Shown: in pieces, positions 3,876 through 29,200 of the stretch
Layout of the letters: the number at the start of each line of letters is the position of its first letter
Position numbering within the stretch: the first letter of the stretch is position 1
From: Caldimicrobium thiodismutans
GTDB taxonomy: Bacteria; Desulfobacterota; Thermodesulfobacteria; Thermodesulfobacteriales; Thermodesulfobacteriaceae
Direction: 5' to 3'
Length of the DNA stretch: 32,000 nt
Assembly (NCBI RefSeq): GCF_001548275.1
Contig: NZ_AP014945.1
Coordinates: forward strand, 150,001 to 182,000
Program-made: the position numbers and the translations under genes
Notes under the pieces: model-generated
The model's input: only the letters and a program-made list of their open reading frames with translations
What the model was told of the DNA's origin: nothing
Databases searched by the model: none

Positions 3876-6800
3876 TTAGCGTTTGGCACTAATTAGAGCA
3901 TCAAACATGTCTTCCACAGTGGAAAGAATTTTGGCAGTTGCGGTAAAGGCCTGCTGATATTTGATAAGATTTGCCATCTCCTCATCAAGAGAAACCCCGG
4001 AAATAGAATCCTTTAAAGTATTAAGCTGTCTTAAGAGGTCATCAAGAAAGCTTTTGTTTTCTTTTACAGCCTTGGTAGTTGTGCCAATTTCACCTACCAT
4101 GCTGGCATAGTAATTTTCAAGGTTTGAAAGATTTAGTGCCTTGCGGGTATCTGTGGCTGAGTCTGCAATAGCCTGAGCAATACGATTATCACCTCTTTTG
4201 AGCTCATAGGGGTTAAGATTGTGAATAAGGCCCTCACCCCTTGTGTCCTTCTGTGAAACCTTGGAAAGTATAAAAGTAGTAAAATCATTACCATCAGTTG
4301 GTGGTGTAGTGGTCTCAATTTTAAAGCCTAAAACTTTTTTAGGTGGAGTTCCGTAAGTAAAATTCTTGAGCTTGATATAGATTTTGCCAGAGGTATCAAG
4401 CCCAGCCTCAAAATAATTTGTTCCACCTATAAGTATGTTATTTATAGCACTAAAGATCACATTCAATGCGGAACCTATTTCTACATCTGCATATGCTCCT
4501 GAGATAGGGTTTCCTTTGTCATCAATCAGTGTAATTCTTATGGTTTGAGTTGAAAAGGAGGCTGAAGCCAGGGCTCTAAAATCGCTCAAATAATAATAGG
4601 AATTAGTCACCGGGTCATATTTGAGATTATTGAGGGTCAGGGTGTTTCCAGCAATAAGGGGTTTTGTGTCTTCAAGGATAAAGCTTTTGGTTTTATAAAG
4701 TCCTGTGGTTTCCACAATGAGTTTTCCTTCCCGATCAAGACGAGAAGATAATGCCCACTTGGCATTTTCCGGGGCATTTATAGTCTGAAGGATCTGAAAG
4801 AGGGGTTTTTCTGTGGTTAGCTCAATTCTAAAGGGATCAACCACATTAAAGGGGTCTTCCACAGTATCAATAGGATTTCCCTTTTCATCAAAAAGATAAG
4901 AAGAGATCTCACCAGCCTTAAGGCCAGAAACCCCTGAAGAGGTTCTTATAAGTCCTAAGGCTCCCTCATAAGGGCTATTTGAATCATCAGCTATCTCAAT
5001 GGTAAAATAGGCTGCATTGGTAGGTGCTCCACTCTCAGAGGGATCAAGCCAGATGTAAAATTTATCCCCAAGGATTCGGGCTTTAAACCCTGGGACTCCA
5101 TCAAAATTGGTTATTAAATCAGAAAGGGTGTCTTCTCCTGAGACTGAAGCTGTTCCAACTATGTCACCATTATTATCAAAAAATTTAACTGTATAAGAAG
5201 CTGATGAGGAGGGGGTAATACCTGCATTTCCCATATAAACTTTTGGCTTAATAATGGGCTCAAGGCCTGAAAGAAAGCGAAATTCAGAGGTGCCATTCCA
5301 TCTAAAGGAGGGAATAAACATATTCTGGTCCCTTAGGTAGCTCAAAAGGCTATCATTTGGAGAAGAGGGGTCAGCTCCAGATACAAGGCTTTCTCCCAGT
5401 TCAAAGCCATAGACCTTGGTCTGATTAGGTTCAAGCCTAAAAACTCCATGCCCGAATTCATCTCTATAAGCCCTTAAAAAGGGAAGCCTGTTTAGTTTAT
5501 TTAGAATTTCCTGAAGGGTATCTGGATCCGTTGATCCTGTGGGATTTATGCTAACTGCAAAGGCTTTGATATTATTGTCCCACTTGATCAAAGGATTTAT
5601 GCCTGAAGACCCTTCTGAAACTTCAAACCAGACTGATCCTGAAGGTGCATTATTTGGAACAAGTTCAAGTCTTAAGATGCCATCCTCAAGAACTGCTCTA
5701 ATACCATTTGAACCATTGAAAAGGGTTGGAAGATCTGAAATCCCTGTTCCTGAGGGGATAATTAAAGGTGATCCAAGGGTATTTCCATTGGCATCTTTAA
5801 AGTAGATAGTAAGATCCCCTGTAAGAGTTGTCCCGCTAAAGGTTCCTTCATAAACTGCCTGAGGCGGATAATTATAAACCCTTCCCTTATCATCATAAGG
5901 GCGCACATAAAGGGTATTAACCTGAAAAGTCTGAGTTGGGTCAATAACATTTTTACTTCTGAAGACTCCGAAAAGGGGGAGCCCTGTTCTTAAAGCGGAG
6001 ACATCCATTTTTCCTGAGGATAAAAGTTCTGGCTTTTGCACAAGAAGGGGATTTACCTGAAAGTCTGCAGGGTCTGTTCCCACAAAAAAGAGATTAATTC
6101 CTGTAGAGAGAAGGATTCCTGAGGTGTCATTGGAAAAGGCAAAGGAGATACCATCCCTTGCTTGAAAGACAAGTTTTCCCCCTCTAACTATAGCGCGAAT
6201 GTCAAAATTGGTAGAAGAGGTAGCATAACCAGCATTTGATAAGGCCTGATTTATTGTAGTTGCAAGGTCATCAAGGGTTGAATCTTCATGGAGATTTAAA
6301 TCTACTCTCACAGGATTGATTTTACCAGTATCCTCTTTCACCCAGAGGTAAAAGGAACCTTTTCTATTTAGCTCAAGATAATAGGGAAGTTCTTTGATAT
6401 ATTGATTTACTGAGTAAGCGCCTTCAAGTTCTTTGGTAAAAAATTCAAGCCCAACTCCCTGGGTATGAAGTTCATTTACTGCCTTAATAAGTTCCTCACC
6501 GAAAAGTTTTAATTTTCCTGCAAGATTTAATTCTTCAACCCTTCTTTGATAGGCAGGATCATCAAAGCGGCCAAAATTAAGGGTTGCTGGAGCTGAAGTT
6601 ATGGAAAATTCAAGTTTTCCTGGACCACGAAAGGCATCTTCCACATAAAGCCTTCCATCCTTTAAATAGGCCTTTACAGTAAAACTATAGGCTCTTTCTA
6701 TGGCCGTTAGAAAATCTCTTAAAGTTTCATCTCCAGTAGTTATGGTAAAGGTTCCTGAGATTTCTTTTCCAAAGTGATCCTTTCCAGTAAAGGTTATAGT

Positions 6801-7763
6801 TCCAGAGGTTATGCCGAGGTCTGAGAATTTATCTGTCTCCCCGAGGGATCTTCCTGCTAAATATATGGGATTTGTGCCTGAGACATATTCATAGTTAAAG
6901 CTATCGGATAGCTGTTCAAGAAGTTTCAGCCAGCCCCCGAGTTCTCCACTTGGCACCTCTTTTCCTGAAAGAGGCACCTTTTCACCATTAGATCCCACCC
7001 AGTAAACCTCTGTTCCAGAGATCTCAAGTTTCCAGTTATAACCAAGATTTACTAAATTAAACCCCTTTCCAAGGATTATGTTATAAGCCCCTTCTTTGGT
7101 TTCAAAATACTGGATACTTGCAAGTTGAGAAAGTTCTCCTACCAGGCGGTCTCTTTGATCTCTCAGGTCATTAGCCGTTTTCCCCCCTGATTCTCTGGCA
7201 ATAATCTGAAGGTTGAGTTCAGCAATCTGTGAGGAGAGGCGATTGATGTTATCAACCATCTCCTTAAGTTTTAAACCAATCTGGGTTTCAAGATCTCTCA
7301 TTCCCTGAAATTTGGCTTTTAAGCCTTCAGTTATGAGTTTTCCATATTCAATCACCTGGGTTCTTGCAGAGAGATTTTCAGGATAATTGGCAAGGTTTTG
7401 CCAGGCATTCCAGAATTCCCTCAAGATTTTGGAAAGCCCGCTATCCTGAGTCTCATTAAAAAGGCTTTCAAGAATATTGAGTCCTGCCTCACTTGCAGAG
7501 ACAAGTCCATAATCTGTTTTTTTTAGATTTATATTTCTTTCAAGGAAGGCATCAAAATAGCGGATAATTTTTTCTATTCTTGAACCTGAACCAATTGAGC
7601 CAACAGGAGAGGGGCTTGGGGGATAGGTGGTTTCAATGGCCTTTTGTCTGGAATAGGCGGGATTATTCACATTGGCAACATTATGAGATATTACAGAGGT
7701 TGCCAGTTGAAAGTTAAGAAGGGCATTTTTGGCAATGTTTAAGGCTGAGCTCAGGCCTGCCAT
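3876..7763 (-). CDS. flgK: Flagellar hook-associated protein 1 FlgK, unusually large (1295 aa)
   Basis: The N-terminus (ISHNVANVNNPAYSRQ) and C-terminus (SLDEEMANLIKYQQAFTATAKILSTVEDMFDALI) are canonical FlgK rod/hook-family terminal helices. The central roughly 830 aa is an expanded repetitive insert. Confidence 0.9.
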   Translation of the reverse strand: MAGLSSALNIAKNALLNFQLATSVISHNVANVNNPAYSRQKAIETTYPPSPSPVGSIGSGSRIEKIIRYFDAFLERNINLKKTDYGLVSASEAGLNILESLFNETQDSGLSKILREFWNAWQNLANYPENLSARTQVIEYGKLITEGLKAKFQGMRDLETQIGLKLKEMVDNINRLSSQIAELNLQIIARESGGKTANDLRDQRDRLVGELSQLASIQYFETKEGAYNIILGKGFNLVNLGYNWKLEISGTEVYWVGSNGEKVPLSGKEVPSGELGGWLKLLEQLSDSFNYEYVSGTNPIYLAGRSLGETDKFSDLGITSGTITFTGKDHFGKEISGTFTITTGDETLRDFLTAIERAYSFTVKAYLKDGRLYVEDAFRGPGKLEFSITSAPATLNFGRFDDPAYQRRVEELNLAGKLKLFGEELIKAVNELHTQGVGLEFFTKELEGAYSVNQYIKELPYYLELNRKGSFYLWVKEDTGKINPVRVDLNLHEDSTLDDLATTINQALSNAGYATSSTNFDIRAIVRGGKLVFQARDGISFAFSNDTSGILLSTGINLFFVGTDPADFQVNPLLVQKPELLSSGKMDVSALRTGLPLFGVFRSKNVIDPTQTFQVNTLYVRPYDDKGRVYNYPPQAVYEGTFSGTTLTGDLTIYFKDANGNTLGSPLIIPSGTGISDLPTLFNGSNGIRAVLEDGILRLELVPNNAPSGSVWFEVSEGSSGINPLIKWDNNIKAFAVSINPTGSTDPDTLQEILNKLNRLPFLRAYRDEFGHGVFRLEPNQTKVYGFELGESLVSGADPSSPNDSLLSYLRDQNMFIPSFRWNGTSEFRFLSGLEPIIKPKVYMGNAGITPSSSASYTVKFFDNNGDIVGTASVSGEDTLSDLITNFDGVPGFKARILGDKFYIWLDPSESGAPTNAAYFTIEIADDSNSPYEGALGLIRTSSGVSGLKAGEISSYLFDEKGNPIDTVEDPFNVVDPFRIELTTEKPLFQILQTINAPENAKWALSSRLDREGKLIVETTGLYKTKSFILEDTKPLIAGNTLTLNNLKYDPVTNSYYYLSDFRALASASFSTQTIRITLIDDKGNPISGAYADVEIGSALNVIFSAINNILIGGTNYFEAGLDTSGKIYIKLKNFTYGTPPKKVLGFKIETTTPPTDGNDFTTFILSKVSQKDTRGEGLIHNLNPYELKRGDNRIAQAIADSATDTRKALNLSNLENYYASMVGEIGTTTKAVKENKSFLDDLLRQLNTLKDSISGVSLDEEMANLIKYQQAFTATAKILSTVEDMFDALISAKR

Positions 7764-20647: not shown

Positions 20648-21744
20648 TGAACCCCAAGCCCTGGTTAAAGGACCTTAAGCCCTATCCCCCTGGAAAAACC
20701 TTAGAAGAAATTCAGAGGGAGCTCGGGCTTGAAGGTCCTATTTATAAATTGAATTCCAATGAAAATCCTCTTGGCCCATCTCCGAAGGTAATTTCAGCTC
20801 TTAAAGAAGCCCTAACTGAAATTCATCTCTATCCAGAGGCAAGCTATAAGACCTTACGATCTGCCCTTGCCAAAAGATGGAATTTATCTCCAGAAAATAT
20901 CATCCTTGGAAATGGCTCAAACGAGATTCTTGAATTTGTCTTTAAGGCCTATCTTGAAAGGGATGACGAAATCATCATTAGTGAACCCTCCTTTTTGATG
21001 TATGAAAAATTTGGCGAGATCTATAGTGTTAAAATAAAAAAAATCCCCTTAACTCCAGATTTTAAACATAACTTAAAGGGAATCCTTTCTTCTATAACCA
21101 GTAAAACCAAAGCCATTTTTCTTGATCATCCCCACAATCCCACAGGCTCAACTTTAAAAAGGAGAGAATGGGAAGAATTTTTAGGGGAACTTCCTCAGGA
21201 CATTCTGGTAGTCCTTGATGAGGCTTATGGGGAGTTTATTGAGGATGAAGAGGTGCCTATGGGAGTTGAGTTTTTGAAAAAGGGCTATCCAGTTCTTATA
21301 ACCCGCACTTTTTCCAAAGCATTTGGGCTTGCAGGATTAAGGCTTGGTTATGGCATGGCAGATAGCTCAATCATTGACATCCTAAATCGGGTAAGACAGC
21401 CCTTCAATGTAAATCTTCTTGCAGTAAAAGCAGGTCTTGCAGTTCTTCAGGATGAAGATTACCAGAAAAGAAGTGTAGAACTTGTTTTCAGAGGGAGGAA
21501 ATACTTGAGTTCTGAGCTTTCCAAGCTGGGTTTTAAGGTTTATCCCTCACAAGCCAATTTTATTATGGTTGATTTTGACAAATGGTGTGAATCGCTTTAT
21601 GAATTTTTATTAAAAAGAGGTATATTTGTTCGACCCTTAAAGGCTTATGGATTTATTAATTGTGTAAGAATTACTATTGGGAAAGAAGAAGCCAATAAAG
21701 TTTTGATAGATAAAATCAAAGAATTTTTAATAAATTTTAAATAA
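20647..21744 (+). CDS. hisC: Histidinol-phosphate aminotransferase
   Basis: 365 aa. LNSNENPLGPSP and the PLP-Lys region RTFSKAFGLAGLRLGY are present. The ATG overlaps the sufBD stop (TAATG). Confidence 0.92.
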   Translation: MNPKPWLKDLKPYPPGKTLEEIQRELGLEGPIYKLNSNENPLGPSPKVISALKEALTEIHLYPEASYKTLRSALAKRWNLSPENIILGNGSNEILEFVFKAYLERDDEIIISEPSFLMYEKFGEIYSVKIKKIPLTPDFKHNLKGILSSITSKTKAIFLDHPHNPTGSTLKRREWEEFLGELPQDILVVLDEAYGEFIEDEEVPMGVEFLKKGYPVLITRTFSKAFGLAGLRLGYGMADSSIIDILNRVRQPFNVNLLAVKAGLAVLQDEDYQKRSVELVFRGRKYLSSELSKLGFKVYPSQANFIMVDFDKWCESLYEFLLKRGIFVRPLKAYGFINCVRITIGKEEANKVLIDKIKEFLINFK

Positions 21745-21762
21745 AATTTATAATTTAAAACC

Positions 21763-21790
21763 TTGACAAAAGTTTAAAAGATTATATTAT
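21763..21790 (+). promoter_or_regulatory. Sigma70-like promoter for small peptide gene 1
   Basis: TTGACA (21763-21768), 16-nt spacer, TATTAT (21785-21790). The TTGACAAAA box recurs upstream of peptide gene 2. Confidence 0.45.
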
Positions 21791-21829
21791 AACTCTCTTG
21801 ACGAAAACAAAACTTAGGAGGAGTAGATC

Positions 21830-21985
21830 ATGAGAAGAAAGATATTTTCTATTTTATTAGTTTGTTTTTCTTTATCTTTATTTTCACCTTTTTTAAGTTT
21901 TGGTGAGGAAAAAAAGGATACTAAAGATAATTCTACCCAACAGGAAACTCCTAAGAAAGAAAAAAAGAAAGATATTGGCTGTTAA
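21830..21985 (+). CDS. Small signal-peptide-like Lys/Glu-rich peptide, paralog 1 (51 aa; not in ORF track)
   Basis: MRRKIFSILLVCFSLSLFSPFLSFGEEKKDTKDNSTQQETPKKEKKKDIGC. SD AGGAGG lies 7 nt upstream. About 75% identical to the 22590 paralog, with many silent differences. Confidence 0.6.
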   Translation: MRRKIFSILLVCFSLSLFSPFLSFGEEKKDTKDNSTQQETPKKEKKKDIGC

Positions 21986-22005
21986 AAATATTTTTAATCT
22001 GATTG

Positions 22006-22128
22006 TTTTTACAGTTTAATGCATAAGTTCCCATTTTTACAAGAAAAAGGAAGGATGGTAAAAGGTAAGAGGTGAGAGTAAAAGAACACTTACCAGGTAA
22101 ACACATAGGTTTGTCCCTACTGTAAAAA
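22006..22128 (+). other. Long-range 10-bp perfect inverted repeat enclosing element copy B and a hairpin
   Basis: TTTTTACAGT (22006-22015) pairs with ACTGTAAAAA (22119-22128). Inside are GGTAAG/CTTACC (22064-22069 / 22089-22094) and GGTAAAC/GTTTGTC (22096-22102 / 22109-22115). Confidence 0.4.
22022..22078. repeat. Copy B of the three-copy purine-rich intergenic element
   Basis: CATAAGTTCCCATTTTTACAAGAAAAAGGAAGGATGGTAAAAGGTAAGAGGTGAGAG aligns with copies at 1665 and 29133. Confidence 0.6.
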
Positions 22129-22338
22129 TTGGAATTAGATAAATATTATTCCAAAAGGATTGACCTGGGTTGAATGCATCTCCCTGTTGCAGACAGGGCT
22201 GCCAGTGCATGTAGACAGGGGGTAAATAATTATTTGCCCCTACTAAAGGAGCTACAATAATTACAGGAGAAGCTTTTTAGTTTAAGATAAAAGAATAATC
22301 CAATTTATCTGCTAAAAAGTCAAATTTCTTAGGTGGTT

Positions 22339-22367
22339 TTGAAAGGTCATCTTAGTTAATCTATAAT
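22339..22367 (+). promoter_or_regulatory. Near-consensus sigma70 promoter inside the ORF-free spacer
   Basis: TTGAAA (22339-22344), exactly 17 nt, TATAAT (22362-22367). No ORF of 60 aa or more follows before peptide gene 2. Confidence 0.4.
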
Positions 22368-22490
22368 GTCACTTACTTGCGCAGGAAGGGAGGCCACATA
22401 GTATGTTACAACAGGTATCACTATACAATAATTGTGTTCCATTTAAAAAATCCTATTGACTTTCAAAAGATAATGGCGCAAACATTGATA

Positions 22491-22518
22491 TTGACAAAAA
22501 TGTAAATTGATTTAAAAT
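22491..22518 (+). promoter_or_regulatory. Sigma70-like promoter proximal to small peptide gene 2
   Basis: TTGACA (22491-22496), 16-nt spacer, TAAAAT (22513-22518). The -35 context TTGACAAAA is shared with the gene 1 promoter. Confidence 0.4.
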
Positions 22519-22589
22519 CCATTTTATATTTTATAGAGAGATTAAAAAAAATCTTTAAAGATTTTTTTAGTAAAAACAAGGGGAGAATT

Positions 22590-22763
22590 ATGAGAAGAAA
22601 GGTAATGGCCCTTTTATTAGTTAGCTTTTCATTAGCCCTATTTTCACCCTTTTTAAGTTTAGCAGAAGAAAAAAAGGAAACTAAGGATAATGCTACTCAA
22701 AAGGAAACCCCCCAAAAAGAAAAAAAGAAGAGAGATAGGCTGTTAAATCCCTATAGCTCATAA
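22590..22763 (+). CDS. Small signal-peptide-like Lys/Glu-rich peptide, paralog 2 (57 aa; not in ORF track)
   Basis: MRRKVMALLLVSFSLALFSPFLSLAEEKKETKDNATQKETPQKEKKKRDRLLNPYSS. SD GGGGAG lies 5-6 nt upstream of the ATG. Confidence 0.6.
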   Translation: MRRKVMALLLVSFSLALFSPFLSLAEEKKETKDNATQKETPQKEKKKRDRLLNPYSS

Positions 22764-22772
22764 AATTTTGAG

Positions 22773-22798
22773 TAAATCTTTGCAGATTTAACTTTTTG
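22773..22798 (+). terminator. Weak hairpin plus T-run between peptide gene 2 and the GGDEF-EAL gene
   Basis: TAAATCT-ttgc-AGATTTA (22773-22790) followed by ACTTTTT. The stem is AU-rich, so read-through into the next gene is plausible. Confidence 0.35.
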
Positions 22799-22813
22799 AT
22801 ATAAAATTATCTT

Positions 22814-25285
22814 ATGGAATTTTTATATCTCAGTCTCATATTAGATCAGGAAGCCCGTATCCTTAGCTGTAATAAAAACTTTCTTAAACTTACAGGTTAT
22901 ACTCTGGAAGAAATTAAATTTAAAAGACTTTGTGAAATCCTTTATGATCCCAGATGTTGGGAAAACTCTGAAAAACTGAAGAGAGAATCTAAGTTCCCTT
23001 TAGATATAGAAATCACCCTTTCCCGTAAAAAGGGTGTTCCCCTTTATGTTCACGGGAAAATCAAGAAATTTTTCCACAATGGAAAAGAACTTTTCCTGCT
23101 TTTTGGCTGGAATATAACCGCCCTTAAAACTTATGAAAGACTTTATAGGCTTTTAAGACTTATAAATTCAATAATTACAAAGGCTCAAACTGAAGAGGAG
23201 ATTTATCAAGAAATTTGCAAGGGGCTTGTTAATGAACTTGGGTTAAGATTTGCATGGGTGGGTGTGCCAGACTGGGAGAAAAAAATAGTAAAACCCCTTT
23301 ATCATTATGGTTATGAGGCTGGTTATCTCTCTGAAATTACTATCTCTCTTGATCCTGAGATTCCTGAAGGTAAAGGCCCAACAGCTCAGGCGATAAGGGA
23401 AGGCAAAATTTCCATAAATCCCGATACCCGAACCAATCCCTATTATACCGCTTTTAGAGAGCCTGCCCTTAAGAGAGATTATCTTTCCAGTGTAGCTATC
23501 CCTCTCTTTGTGAAAGGTGAACTCCGGTCAGTTTTAAACCTCTATTCCAAAGAGCCCTATTATTTTAACCAGCTTCAGGAGGGGCTCCTTTATGAATTGA
23601 AAGAGGATCTTGAGTTTGCTATATCTCGGCTTGAGAAAGAACATTTTTTAGAATTAATAAGCACAGCTCTTACTAACTCTGACCTCTGGCTATTAATTAC
23701 TGATGAAAGGGGAAATATTTTATATGCCAATACAGAGGTTATGTTGCTTACTGGTTACACAGAAGAGGAGCTATTGGGAAGGAATCTCTCTCTTTTTGAG
23801 GCTGAAAGGGGCTCCCCTGAGAGCCATCCAGAGATGTGGGATTATCTCTCTGAAGGGAGAAATTTTTCGGCTCTTTTTACCTATAGAAAAAAGAGTGGAG
23901 AAGTCTTTTACCTGGATCAAAAGGCCATACCAGTAGATTTTGGACCGGATAAAAAATATATAGTTTTTGCAGGCAGAGATCTAACCCTTCAAATTGGCCT
24001 TTTTGAAACTATAGAAAACCTCAAAAATTACGATCCTCTAACAGATAGCCTCTCCTTAAGAGGTTTACTGGATAAAGCTAAGACCTCTCTTCCCCACCTC
24101 AAAGGGAATGCCCTTTTTATTGTCCTCGATTTATATCAATTTACATATATAAACGATCACTATGGCTTTCTGATTGGTGATGAGATTTTAAGGTTCTTAG
24201 CACGGAGACTAAAAGGAATTCTCAGGGAATCTGATTATTTAGCAAGAGTGGCCTCGGATGAATTTTGTCTTTTTATTTCCGGAATAAAGAATGAAGAAGA
24301 GATAGCCTCTAAGCTTTATGAAATAGGTAAGCTTATCTCAGGACCCATTGAGATAAAAAGTGAAAAATTGAGCCTTAAGTATAATCTTGGGGTTTCTCTT
24401 TATCCTCTTGATGGAAGTGATCCTGAGGATCTCTATCGCAAGGCTAATTCTGCCTGTTCCTTGGCTAAAAAAGAAGGTCCCAATGTGATAAAATTTTATG
24501 GAAAAGAAGTGGAAGTTCTTATTAAAAAGACCCTGGAGGTAGAAAGGCTCATAGAGGAGGCTTTAAACTTTGGATATTTTCAGTTTTATTTTCAACCTTA
24601 CTTTGATACGCATAACCTTTTATTATCAGGTGCTGAGGCATTAATAAGAATAGTTAAACCAAATGGGGAGGTGATTTCCCCTGGAGTTTTTATTTCTCAC
24701 TTGGAGACCTCTCCTCTGAGAAGGGACTTTGAAGTGTGGGCTATAAAGACCCTTGTTGAAAAGATAAATCTCTGGAAACTACCTATAGGATTAAATCTCT
24801 ATCCCGATACTTTTGGGGATGAGTCTTTTTGGGATGAGGTTACAACTTTTCTGGAAGGACTTGAAGGTCCTCTTGTCCTTGAAATCACTGAAAGGGGGTT
24901 TATAAAAAATCCAGAAGGAATTGTTGAGGTTTTTAGAAGCCTAAAAGAAAAATATCCTTACTTGAGATTTGCCCTTGATGACTTTGGAACAGGTTATAGC
25001 AACATGAGTTATCTCCGTAAATTACCCTTAGATTATTTAAAGATTGATCTAACCTTTGTGCGGGAAATTGAATCTGATGATAGGGTAAGAGGCATTGTGA
25101 AAACCATAATTGATTTAGCCCATATTTTGCAAGCTAAGGCTTTAGCAGAGGGCGTTGAATCTCAAGAACAGATTCAGATTCTTGATATTATGGGATGTGA
25201 CTATCTTCAGGGATTTTATTTTGAAAAACCTATTCCTGAAAAAGATTTTATAAAAAAGTATCTACCTAAGATTAATTTATCTTGA
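22814..25285 (+). CDS. PAS-GAF-PAS-GGDEF(degenerate)-EAL signalling protein, probable c-di-GMP phosphodiesterase
   Basis: 823 aa. The GGDEF position reads ASDEF (nt 24251-24265), with an RxxD I-site (RESD) 5 residues upstream. The EAL domain retains EALIR, EITE, DDFGTGYS, KID, EGVE and QG. Confidence 0.9.
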   Translation: MEFLYLSLILDQEARILSCNKNFLKLTGYTLEEIKFKRLCEILYDPRCWENSEKLKRESKFPLDIEITLSRKKGVPLYVHGKIKKFFHNGKELFLLFGWNITALKTYERLYRLLRLINSIITKAQTEEEIYQEICKGLVNELGLRFAWVGVPDWEKKIVKPLYHYGYEAGYLSEITISLDPEIPEGKGPTAQAIREGKISINPDTRTNPYYTAFREPALKRDYLSSVAIPLFVKGELRSVLNLYSKEPYYFNQLQEGLLYELKEDLEFAISRLEKEHFLELISTALTNSDLWLLITDERGNILYANTEVMLLTGYTEEELLGRNLSLFEAERGSPESHPEMWDYLSEGRNFSALFTYRKKSGEVFYLDQKAIPVDFGPDKKYIVFAGRDLTLQIGLFETIENLKNYDPLTDSLSLRGLLDKAKTSLPHLKGNALFIVLDLYQFTYINDHYGFLIGDEILRFLARRLKGILRESDYLARVASDEFCLFISGIKNEEEIASKLYEIGKLISGPIEIKSEKLSLKYNLGVSLYPLDGSDPEDLYRKANSACSLAKKEGPNVIKFYGKEVEVLIKKTLEVERLIEEALNFGYFQFYFQPYFDTHNLLLSGAEALIRIVKPNGEVISPGVFISHLETSPLRRDFEVWAIKTLVEKINLWKLPIGLNLYPDTFGDESFWDEVTTFLEGLEGPLVLEITERGFIKNPEGIVEVFRSLKEKYPYLRFALDDFGTGYSNMSYLRKLPLDYLKIDLTFVREIESDDRVRGIVKTIIDLAHILQAKALAEGVESQEQIQILDIMGCDYLQGFYFEKPIPEKDFIKKYLPKINLS

Positions 25286-26447: not shown

Positions 26448-27188
26448 TTACCAATTTAGATTTTCTTCCTTTAGCACCTCATCCCGGATTATTTTTAAGG
26501 CCTTCTCAAGGAGAACCTCATCAGGAATGGAGGCCTCCTCTGTGTTAAAATAGGGAACATTACCTTCTTTGATATCAGCCCTTAAGCCCTCAAGGTCATA
26601 AGCAAGGAGATAAATTAGATCTAAGAGGTCTCCTGTAAGGGGGGTATCAGCAAATCTCTGCCTCTTTAAAACTACTTCTCCCCAGAGGTCATTAAAATGA
26701 TGGTAAGGGAGAAGCCCCTGTTCTTTAAGAAAATCCTTTACTTTAATGGGGCGGTTTTCATAGTGCCCTTTACAGTGGGTTTCCCGAATGATCTTATAAA
26801 GTTCTATCTTTTCTCCCTTTTCATTTTCTGCAAAGTAACGGGCTAAAGGATAGGTTCGGCAGGCTGAAGGCCTATCTGGATAGACCTTACAGCCCTCTTT
26901 TTCATCTAAAAAAGGACAGGAATAGTCATAGGGATTCATGTTAATTGAAATAACAGGAAGCTGGGTTACCTCTCCAATAAAAAATTCTCCATACTTTTCA
27001 ATAAGTTCTTCTGTTGAAAGCCCTAAGCTCTTTTTTAACCTCAAAAGATCATAGGGGGAAAGGATAAGTTTTACATCATAACAACACTTATTAAAACAGA
27101 CTATACCTTTGTAACATCTAAAGGGAAACTCATCCTCCAAGGTAAGATCCTTGGGGTCAAAAACTATATTATAATGAGGGATATGCAT
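26448..27188 (-). CDS. YkgJ/UPF0153-like cysteine-cluster (Zn/Fe-chelating) protein
   Basis: 246 aa. Cys cluster FRCYKGIVCFNKCC plus the downstream CPFLDEKEGCKVYPDRPSACRTYP, as in the CxxCxxCC family although the first spacing differs. Confidence 0.65.
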   Translation of the reverse strand: MHIPHYNIVFDPKDLTLEDEFPFRCYKGIVCFNKCCYDVKLILSPYDLLRLKKSLGLSTEELIEKYGEFFIGEVTQLPVISINMNPYDYSCPFLDEKEGCKVYPDRPSACRTYPLARYFAENEKGEKIELYKIIRETHCKGHYENRPIKVKDFLKEQGLLPYHHFNDLWGEVVLKRQRFADTPLTGDLLDLIYLLAYDLEGLRADIKEGNVPYFNTEEASIPDEVLLEKALKIIRDEVLKEENLNW

Positions 27189-29026: not shown

Positions 29027-29132
29027 TAAGACCTTCTTTTTATAAGAATTTCTCTTTTTTAAGAAAAAGAAAAACATGAAAAAAATTTTTTCAAGTATTT
29101 GTGATAGCTATTTTAATATTTTTTTCCTTTTG

Positions 29133-29200
29133 CATAAATTCATAGGCTTATAAGAAAAAGGGTGGTAAAAGGTGAGAGGTGAGAGGTGAAAGGTGAAAGG
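29133..29200. repeat. Copy C of the purine-rich intergenic element, with a 4x tandem octamer tail
   Basis: CATAAATTCATAGGCTTATAAGAAAAAGGGTGGTAAAAGG followed by TGAGAGG TGAGAGG TGAAAGG TGAAAGG, which is (GGTGARAG)x4. Confidence 0.6.

Follow-up and report, generated by a model that had tools for sequence, protein, structure and literature searches.

We have identified, by comparison of predicted genes and proteins, what appears to be an unannotated, clade-restricted two-gene module in which a very small secreted c-type cytochrome (the mini-cytochrome) is encoded beside an exported peptide that ends in cysteine. Two members of the peptide family, which is found in sulfur bacteria of hot springs, are encoded in tandem in the stretch of DNA analysed here (the window), 32,000 nt of Caldimicrobium thiodismutans (contig NZ_AP014945.1, positions 150,001 to 182,000), by the small open reading frames (sORFs) THC_0166 (copy 1) and THC_0167 (copy 2). 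The overall explanation that we favour, and lean towards with some reserve, is that the Cys-tailed peptide serves as a flexible arm in the periplasm and works with the small cytochrome. A reading of the window made from its letters alone (the sequence-only reading) had offered two models for the sORF products, exported mini-peptides and membrane peptides of the type I toxin kind, and had stressed the adjoining c-di-GMP phosphodiesterase (PDE) gene. The first model is supported; the toxin model and the emphasis on the PDE are not, given a conserved tail and a variable PDE synteny.

A peptide family with a Gly-Cys terminus

A first search of 5.8 billion proteins returned four sequences only, and five further, more distant peptides came from an exhaustive HMMER run against 1.84 billion representatives. 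After two profile iterations the family comprised ~65 protein clusters of 43-75 amino acids (aa). Sources with a named organism are all Caldimicrobium, Thermodesulfobacteriaceae or Thermodesulfobacteriota, and some distant members lie on higher-GC contigs to which no taxon is assigned. The family had gone unrecognised in the sequence-only reading, and the databases agree: nothing above threshold was obtained for the peptides or the mini-cytochrome against Pfam and NCBIfam, or for a mini-cytochrome profile against the PDB. Matches to Spy and Asr were discarded as artefacts of the signal peptide or of composition.

Members share a common architecture, consisting of a signal peptide, an E/K/D/A-rich linker that starts with EEKK or AEKK, a proline, four to six Lys/Arg residues and the C-terminus x-[E/I/V]-G-C, with the stop codon immediately after. 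The linker varies in length and composition across the family and carries zero to four copies, usually one to four, of the motif N-A-T. In an alignment of 31 sequences, the proline and the final Gly-Cys are invariant and an N, a T, an E and two K are nearly so; all conserved columns fall within the hydrophilic tail, and the hydrophobic segment has none.

Signal-peptidase I sites were called by a rule-based scan of the 66 full-length members, 64 of which have one. Position -1 is alanine in 53 of these 64, the net charge of the n-region is +2 in 50, and the predicted signal peptide and mature peptide have median lengths of 24 and 29 aa, respectively. Both window peptides have an MRRK n-region followed by 20 uncharged residues, and their predicted cleavage sites lie between S-F-G and E (copy 1) and between S-L-A and E (copy 2), with proline at -6. 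An AlphaFold2 model of the peptide has a helix at residues 1-20 (predicted local distance difference test score, pLDDT, of 85) and a disordered tail (pLDDT < 50). The net charge of the mature peptide is mostly +4 to +5 across the family and only +1 in copy 1. The predicted cleavage site in 64/66 members and the confinement of invariant residues to the hydrophilic tail fit the mini-peptide model of Sec export, and we are highly confident that the family is real and that its members are exported.

Lpp and the entericidins are very small Sec-exported proteins of Gram-negative bacteria with precursors of ~40-80 residues, and the reactive residue of Lpp is C-terminal. The peptides resemble them in their short precursor, in the n-h-c organisation of the signal peptide and in having a function that would reside in a short mature chain; they differ in that they possess no lipobox, end in cysteine rather than lysine, and have a mature chain that is predicted to be disordered and is highly charged. 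Two other classes of small exported or processed peptide were considered and rejected. A bacterial lipoprotein would require a lipobox ([LVI][ASTVI][GAS]C), and residues 9-12 of copy 1 read L-L-V-C, with valine at -1; copy 2 has serine in place of this cysteine at position 12, and the family as a whole lacks the cysteine. A ribosomally synthesised and post-translationally modified peptide (RiPP) precursor was set aside because the neighbouring genes encode HisC, the PDE, TonB, KARI, PhoH and a LuxR-type regulator, with no known RiPP enzyme among them, and the precursor N-terminus is a Sec signal rather than a RiPP leader peptide.

A few members are irregular. P0037, a 935-aa protein from Logan, clusters at 90% identity with 52-aa peptides of the type A branch (see below) and may be a read-through or mis-assembly, and P0060 has a second cysteine within its linker (…GEKKGGCPKK…). 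One distant member differs between two assemblies (L022 6001-6228 and L034 6001-6183) by one additional 15-residue repeat, DAAPAKAEEKKDAKK; both contigs stop just 3' of the peptide gene.

The mini-cytochrome partner

The family has two branches, type A, which ends …PKKKK[V/I/A]EGC, and type B, which ends …KKK[R/K][E/D]IGC and includes both window genes. In the genomic look-ups, the type A gene always lies 20-50 nt 3' of an 82-83-aa gene whose product consists of a signal peptide and a ~60-residue protein with a single CxxCH (CVKCHKSMDKVAE…), and which is predicted to be a secreted mono-haem mini c-type cytochrome. Its mature part is ~90% conserved across lineages in which the signal peptides have diverged. 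A reverse search with the cytochrome as query yielded 6 genome loci and 10 metagenome loci. Among the 24 mini-cytochrome loci recovered via either partner, the peptide gene is found 20-50 nt downstream wherever sequence is available, with two exceptions.

The first exception, on a metagenome contig (ERZ1669249 NODE-254; L032 4001-4450), is a single secreted fusion protein of 149 aa that reads mini-cytochrome, a ~70-residue S/T/K/E-rich linker and …APKKKKVEGC. As its tail has no hydrophobic segment of its own, this segment would be only a targeting signal in the stand-alone peptides, and the fusion argues that the tail has its site of action in the compartment of the cytochrome, probably on the cytochrome itself. 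In the second exception (L024 1514-1783), a variant of the mini-cytochrome itself ends …TKNTEKCCSL and no peptide gene stands behind it. From position 1823 of that locus onward there is an ORF that resembles the N-terminus of a DsbC-type disulfide isomerase, as judged by sequence reading with no family scan.

Compared with class I mono-haem c-type cytochromes, the partner is alike in its signal peptide, its single CxxCH and its mature length of ~60 residues. It differs from them in scoring below every Pfam gathering score (matches to Cytochrome_CBB3, PF13442, are weak and sub-threshold), in having no sequence relative in the PDB, and in being followed by, or fused to, a Cys-tailed peptide. It contains no free cysteine. 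A metagenome-assembled genome (MAG) of the closest relative carries the cytochrome-type A pair elsewhere in its genome (L014), and MAGs of C. thiodismutans contain the cytochrome gene (L016) as well as one for a type A peptide (P0025), from which it follows that C. thiodismutans probably has three family members.

These results bear on two readings of the peptides as toxic or antimicrobial agents. According to the type I toxin model, the hydrophobic N-terminus would be a single-pass inner-membrane helix that damages the membrane and is controlled by an antisense RNA. The peptides do share with Hok, TisB, Fst and TxpA their origin from sORFs of ~50 codons, a hydrophobic N-terminal segment (here of ~20 residues) and a sometimes tandem arrangement, and the spacer between the window copies is somewhat more structured than shuffled sequence. 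However, it is the tail and not the helix that is conserved, the hydrophobic segment being the least conserved part; the Ala-x-Ala-type cleavage site is retained; the fusion protein carries the tail on a secreted cytochrome; and across genera the family members are single-copy chromosomal genes partnered with one for a cytochrome. Neither Rfam nor a search for complementarity detected an antisense or overlapping RNA element, the complementary stretches of 12-14 nt being at chance level. We therefore regard the toxin model as very improbable. A Sec-dependent cationic bacteriocin or antimicrobial peptide is equally hard to credit. Small size, predicted secretion, richness in lysine and the usual mature charge are in keeping with such an activity, but copy 1 falls well short of that charge, the predicted disordered tail has no amphipathic or hydrophobic face, there are no nearby immunity or export genes, and a cytochrome gene is the strict partner.

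The two window genes

The coordinates and translations of both sORFs given in the sequence-only reading were reproduced. The same reading held that the genes had been missed by the ORF track; they do lie below its 60-aa cut-off, but both are already in NCBI as hypothetical proteins. As it had reported, each gene has its own Shine-Dalgarno sequence and TTGACA box, the latter forming part of a promoter-like site in each case. A recount of the first 47 codons also gave exactly the reported 21 differences (9 silent and 12 replacements). The copies form a 143-nt direct repeat (21827-21969 and 22587-22729; 81% identity) with members 760 nt apart, and their likeness at the DNA level is confined to the ORFs and ends at the ORF borders. 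Identical copies of the sORF 1 peptide occur in L002 and L003.

The divergent C-termini of the two copies had been ascribed to a 2-nt indel near the stop codon, which proved incorrect. Copy 2 was compared with three near-identical relatives, namely a MAG (L001), a Joint Genome Institute (JGI) metagenome contig (L002) and a Logan assembly (L003). In all three it is a 51-aa gene with the tail …KKKKRREIGC, and the change is traced to a single difference in the DNA alignment, CCCCCC in the window and CCCCC in the relatives. The event is thus a 1-nt insertion of C upstream of the site that had been proposed, and codons 42-47 of copy 2, which had been counted as conserved, are in fact out of frame. 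The Lys-rich A/G tract tolerates a shifted reading, and this masked the frameshift. Deletion of one C gives MRRKVMALLLVSFSLALFSPFLSLAEEKKETKDNATQKETPKKKKRREIGC*, the same sequence as protein P0003, with the ancestral-frame stop at 22744-22746.

With the frame restored, the tails of copies 1 and 2 align codon for codon (K/K, K/K, E/K, K/K, K/R, K/R, D/E, I/I, G, C, stop), which indicates that both copies were ancestrally 51-aa precursors ending [D/E]-I-G-C (DIGC in copy 1, EIGC in copy 2). The copy 2 tail in the window, RDRLLNPYSS, would then be a derived frameshift, and the C6 tract is either a strain-specific inactivating mutation or a homopolymer sequencing error. In the reference genome, THC_0167 merits a flag as frameshifted relative to its relatives.

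Both sORFs are genuine protein-coding genes under purifying selection, as the sequence-only reading had proposed from the pattern of codon differences. Copy 1 and copy 2 (restored frame) differ by 16 synonymous changes in 29.7 sites and 16 non-synonymous changes in 123.3 sites, a ratio of non-synonymous to synonymous divergence (dN/dS) of 0.15; the synonymous excess is significant (binomial P = 1e-4), and the differences at codon positions 1, 2 and 3 number 10, 3 and 19. Orthologues in other species give dN/dS values of 0.015-0.3, and one pair of type A orthologues has 13 synonymous changes and a single non-synonymous one (P = 2e-8).

Type B loci and the PDE gene

The position of type B genes was compared between lineages. 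In one Caldimicrobium lineage (L004, L015, L018 and L027) the order is LuxR-type regulator, cytochrome, A, B and a protein with the motif CxxCxxCC; in L023 it is B, cytochrome, A and KARI, so that type B adjoins the cytochrome-A module at all five loci. Two other Caldimicrobium species (L009 and L010) have one B gene, flanked by the PDE gene and by a TonB gene in convergent orientation, with HisC directly adjoining the PDE gene. In C. thiodismutans the PDE and TonB genes overlap, and thus the position occupied by B in L009 and L010 is empty; instead, HisC and the PDE gene are separated by a 1,069-nt insert that holds copy 1 (B1), the 604-nt spacer and copy 2 (B2). The dN value between B1 and B2 is 0.14, compared with 0.29-0.40 against the L009 and L010 genes, which points to a lineage-specific tandem duplication that is younger than the species split.

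The encoded 823-aa protein has a degenerate GGDEF motif (ASDEF) and an intact EAL, which fits a phosphodiesterase. Copy 2 ends 50 nt 5' of its start codon, a spacing already recorded in the sequence-only reading, and no terminator was predicted between the two genes. These facts could suggest that the sORFs are leader peptides or upstream ORFs that regulate the PDE gene. The comparative data largely refute this idea, to which we attach hardly any probability: the peptide gene follows the PDE gene in L009 and L010, members elsewhere show no linkage to a PDE gene and in other lineages adjoin the cytochrome gene, and selection acts on the amino-acid sequence, signal peptide included. The functional tie to the PDE that had been implied is accordingly weak, and the adjacency reflects the history of the locus in this genus and not a trait of the family.

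Type B genes are subject to decay. A 2-nt insertion shifts the frame within the signal peptide of one copy (L018 5493-5681), only a remnant ending …KKKKREMDC survives at another locus (L030 615-674), and no type B gene lies between the type A and CxxCxxCC genes in L025, L026, L028 and L031. Copy 2 of the window would fit this pattern if the C6 tract is real. Type B upstream regions did not align across species past generic promoter and Shine-Dalgarno features.

At L001, copy 1, the spacer and HisC have given way to fragments of an IS256-type (Transposase_mut) gene (4644-5766), which directly adjoin the promoter region of copy 2; homology to the window resumes near 22443.

Proposed function

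It is hypothesized, under the explanation that we favour, that signal peptidase I frees a ~26-residue peptide into the periplasm, where the peptide would be a flexible arm with the terminal thiol as its sole reactive group. Arm and small c-type cytochrome together would carry out thiol, disulfide or sulfane-sulfur chemistry, by the logic with which the cysteine of SoxY is served by SoxAX, and the polybasic stretch would draw anionic sulfur species or bind an anionic surface. A functional partnership between the family and the mini-cytochrome is likely. For type B specifically, such a partnership might equally hold or fail, and thiol-carrier or redox-arm chemistry, suggested by analogy, is a tentative proposal. 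Rather doubtful is the fullest form, the 'thiol arm', in which a Sec-exported, disordered peptide of ~26-30 residues with a terminal cysteine would be a diffusible covalent sulfur carrier or a periplasmic redox co-substrate for the cytochrome. Were it true, thermophiles that disproportionate sulfur would possess in this module a two-gene counterpart of SoxYZ/SoxAX, the type B paralogues of the window would be specialised or spare carriers, and the N-A-T repeats and Lys run would be sites of modification or substrate steering.

SoxY is a folded protein of ~110 residues with a GGCGG motif, and its cysteine is not the last residue. This cysteine, borne on a swinging arm, carries the intermediates of the pathway, and thiosulfate is joined to it by the cytochrome SoxAX (PMC5336275). 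The likeness to the present module is one of location and design, in that both would place in the periplasm a single reactive cysteine, preceded by glycine, on a flexible C-terminal peptide (here predicted from sequence). Both come from sulfur-metabolising bacteria, and the genes of both are linked to that of a c-type cytochrome (PMC5336275), a linkage that is strict here for type A and that may extend to action of the cytochrome on the cysteine. SoxY pairs with SoxZ, however, whereas the peptides here are ~26 disordered residues with a Lys run that end …[IE]-G-C-COOH; they have neither the GGCGG motif nor the SoxY fold and show no SoxY match in Pfam or NCBIfam. SoxZ, SoxB and SoxA were not seen near the peptide genes, and no homology of the mini-cytochrome to SoxA or SoxX was found. 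By these features the family is not a member of the SoxY family.

Several points weigh against a periplasmic arm that works with the cytochrome. The cytochrome gene is absent from the 32-kb window, which holds the PDE/TonB locus, and the window type B genes would be linked to it by paralogy and by synteny in other genomes. Type B genes are lost, truncated or frameshifted in several lineages and in copy 2, and hence dispensable. A conserved His and Met in the mini-cytochrome could complete haem ligation without any cysteine, and the mini-cytochrome is itself basic, which makes it less than obvious how a basic peptide would dock electrostatically. In addition, closely related MAGs supply many of the loci cited in support, so that these lack independence; export and cleavage are predicted from sequence, and thiol modification and cytochrome binding are proposals.

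The strongest rival is a structural tether, in which the polybasic stretch and the terminal cysteine would attach the peptide or the cytochrome, electrostatically or covalently, to the membrane, to the outer membrane, or to a particle of sulfur or mineral, with a thiol that is not catalytic. The fusion protein can be read in this way, as cargo, long linker, Lys run and Gly-Cys; moreover, the Lys run and terminal cysteine are the most conserved parts of the family, and the linker varies in both length and composition. Yet the stand-alone peptides have no cargo, the mini-cytochrome offers no free cysteine for a disulfide to them, and no candidate transferase is conserved among the adjacent genes. 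We consider the tether unlikely.

Alternatively, the peptide may be an acceptor of modification, with N-A-T as an N-glycosylation sequon, the Lys run as a target of methylation, or both, and the modified peptide as the active form. Of 64 members, 59 contain N-x-S/T in a variable number of copies (1-4), but the motif is missing from the most distant ones (P0031, P0069-72 and P0078). Furthermore, the Campylobacter-type sequon D/E-x-N-x-S/T is not matched, position -2 being K, T or A. The window peptides (T-K-D-N-S-T and T-K-D-N-A-T) have lysine at -2 and agree with plain N-x-T and not with the extended PglB sequon, and none of the papers searched links PglB to Thermodesulfobacteria.

As for methylation, proteins with CxxCxxCC (PF03692) are encoded near peptide genes in three lineages, that of the window and two in which they lie directly 3' of the peptide module (L004, 8510-9322; L032, 4769-5545), and are only distantly related to each other. 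Such a protein is a possible modification enzyme for the Lys-rich tails. At L012, a peptide gene is located between a gene for a TlpA-like WCPPC thioredoxin and a Methyltransf_16 gene, the latter family being classed by Pfam among the lysine methyltransferases. FliB is a [4Fe-4S] flagellin lysine methyltransferase (PMC8598068); the window CxxCxxCC protein matches the FliB lysine-methylase model at 15 bits, which is weak and sub-threshold against a cut-off of 85. This reading is improbable as an explanation by itself, and it may coexist with either the flexible-arm or the tether model.

Other neighbours are in keeping with redox or sulfur functions. Beyond the Methyltransf_16 gene of L012 are genes for a sirohaem-synthase-like protein, CcsA and HemA, L021 has ResB close to the module, and a YeeE/YedE sulfur-transport gene is upstream of the distant family member in L022 and L034. 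Periplasmic haem, thiol and sulfur chemistry would be common to these neighbours, which are to be taken as leads, not proof; since the peptide genes often have a promoter and terminator of their own, adjacency is weak evidence.

The biochemistry of the first steps of elemental-sulfur and thiosulfate disproportionation is not yet settled, and a clade-restricted pair of a minimal cytochrome c and a terminal-thiol peptide is a concrete candidate for extracytoplasmic sulfur handling. The cytochrome and peptide genes are probably highly expressed, and both products are small enough for chemical synthesis. The family also illustrates that genes of ~50 codons that are labelled 'hypothetical' or removed by length filters can make up coherent families with strict gene partnerships.

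Other features of the window

Coordinates of the elements discussed above, and of further ones, are compiled in Table 1.

Table 1. Features of the window associated with the two peptide genes or located near them
Feature	Position	Strand	Remarks
sORF 1 (THC_0166)	21830..21985	+	51-aa type B precursor
sORF 1 predicted signal peptide	21830-21904	+	MRRK…LSFG
sORF 1 predicted mature 26-mer	21905-21982	+	EEKKDTKDNSTQQETPKKEKKKDIGC
sORF 2 (THC_0167)	22590..22763	+	Type B precursor, 57 aa as assembled, tail frameshifted
Copy 1 promoter-like site	21763..21790	+	TTGACA-16-TATTAT, 11/12; a match to the sigma-70-like consensus only
Copy 1 Shine-Dalgarno AGGAGGAG	21816..21823	+	6 nt 5' of ATG; direct reading
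Copy 2 promoter-like site	22491..22518	+	TTGACA-16-TAAAAT, 11/12 consensus match; kept in L001, L002 and L003
Copy 2 Shine-Dalgarno GGGGAG	22580-85	+	Direct reading
Perfect 24-nt A/T palindrome	22545..22568	.	Between copy 2 promoter and Shine-Dalgarno
C6 homopolymer	22708..22713	+	C5 in L001, L002 and L003; the extra C shifts the frame and removes C-terminal Ile-Gly-Cys
Spacer between copies, 604 nt	21986..22589	.	Last ~147 nt form part of the copy 2 unit and persist in L001
~55-nt intergenic motif GCATAAGTTCnCAT..TTACAAGAAAAAnGAAGGnTGGnAAAAGGTnAGAGG	22020-22078, 1665-1715, 29131-29185	+	0.02 chance matches expected; no Rfam match
PAS-GAF-PAS-GGDEF-EAL protein, 823 aa	22814..25285	+	Neighbour only; position relative to the peptide gene is species-dependent
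CxxCxxCC (PF03692) protein	26448..27188	-	Possible partner, three genes from the window peptides; association suggestive only

Apart from the copy 2 promoter region (its last 147 nt), the spacer has no homologue at any other locus. Its predicted folding is modestly stronger than that of shuffled sequence, with z-scores of -2.5 for one strand and -3.1 for the other. The ORFs within it are not conserved, a 42-aa ORF on the + strand being shortened in L002. Rfam found nothing at gathering thresholds in the whole window, and a permissive search of 21600-22900 gave chance matches to eukaryotic families only; no tRNA or tmRNA was found by ARAGORN. A palindrome AAATCT-N4-AGATTT that flanks copy 2 (22774-22789, related to 22545-22568) was considered as an operator and dropped, at least two matches being obtained in 17 of 100 shuffles.

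A rubredoxin-like ORF of 68 aa (1349-1555, - strand) is divergent from mnmA, and a copy of the 55-nt motif lies between the two. A flagellar gene cluster spans roughly 2.9-12.6 kb of the window and includes a gene (3876-7763, - strand) for a FlgK-like hook-associated protein that, at 1295 aa, is unusually long.

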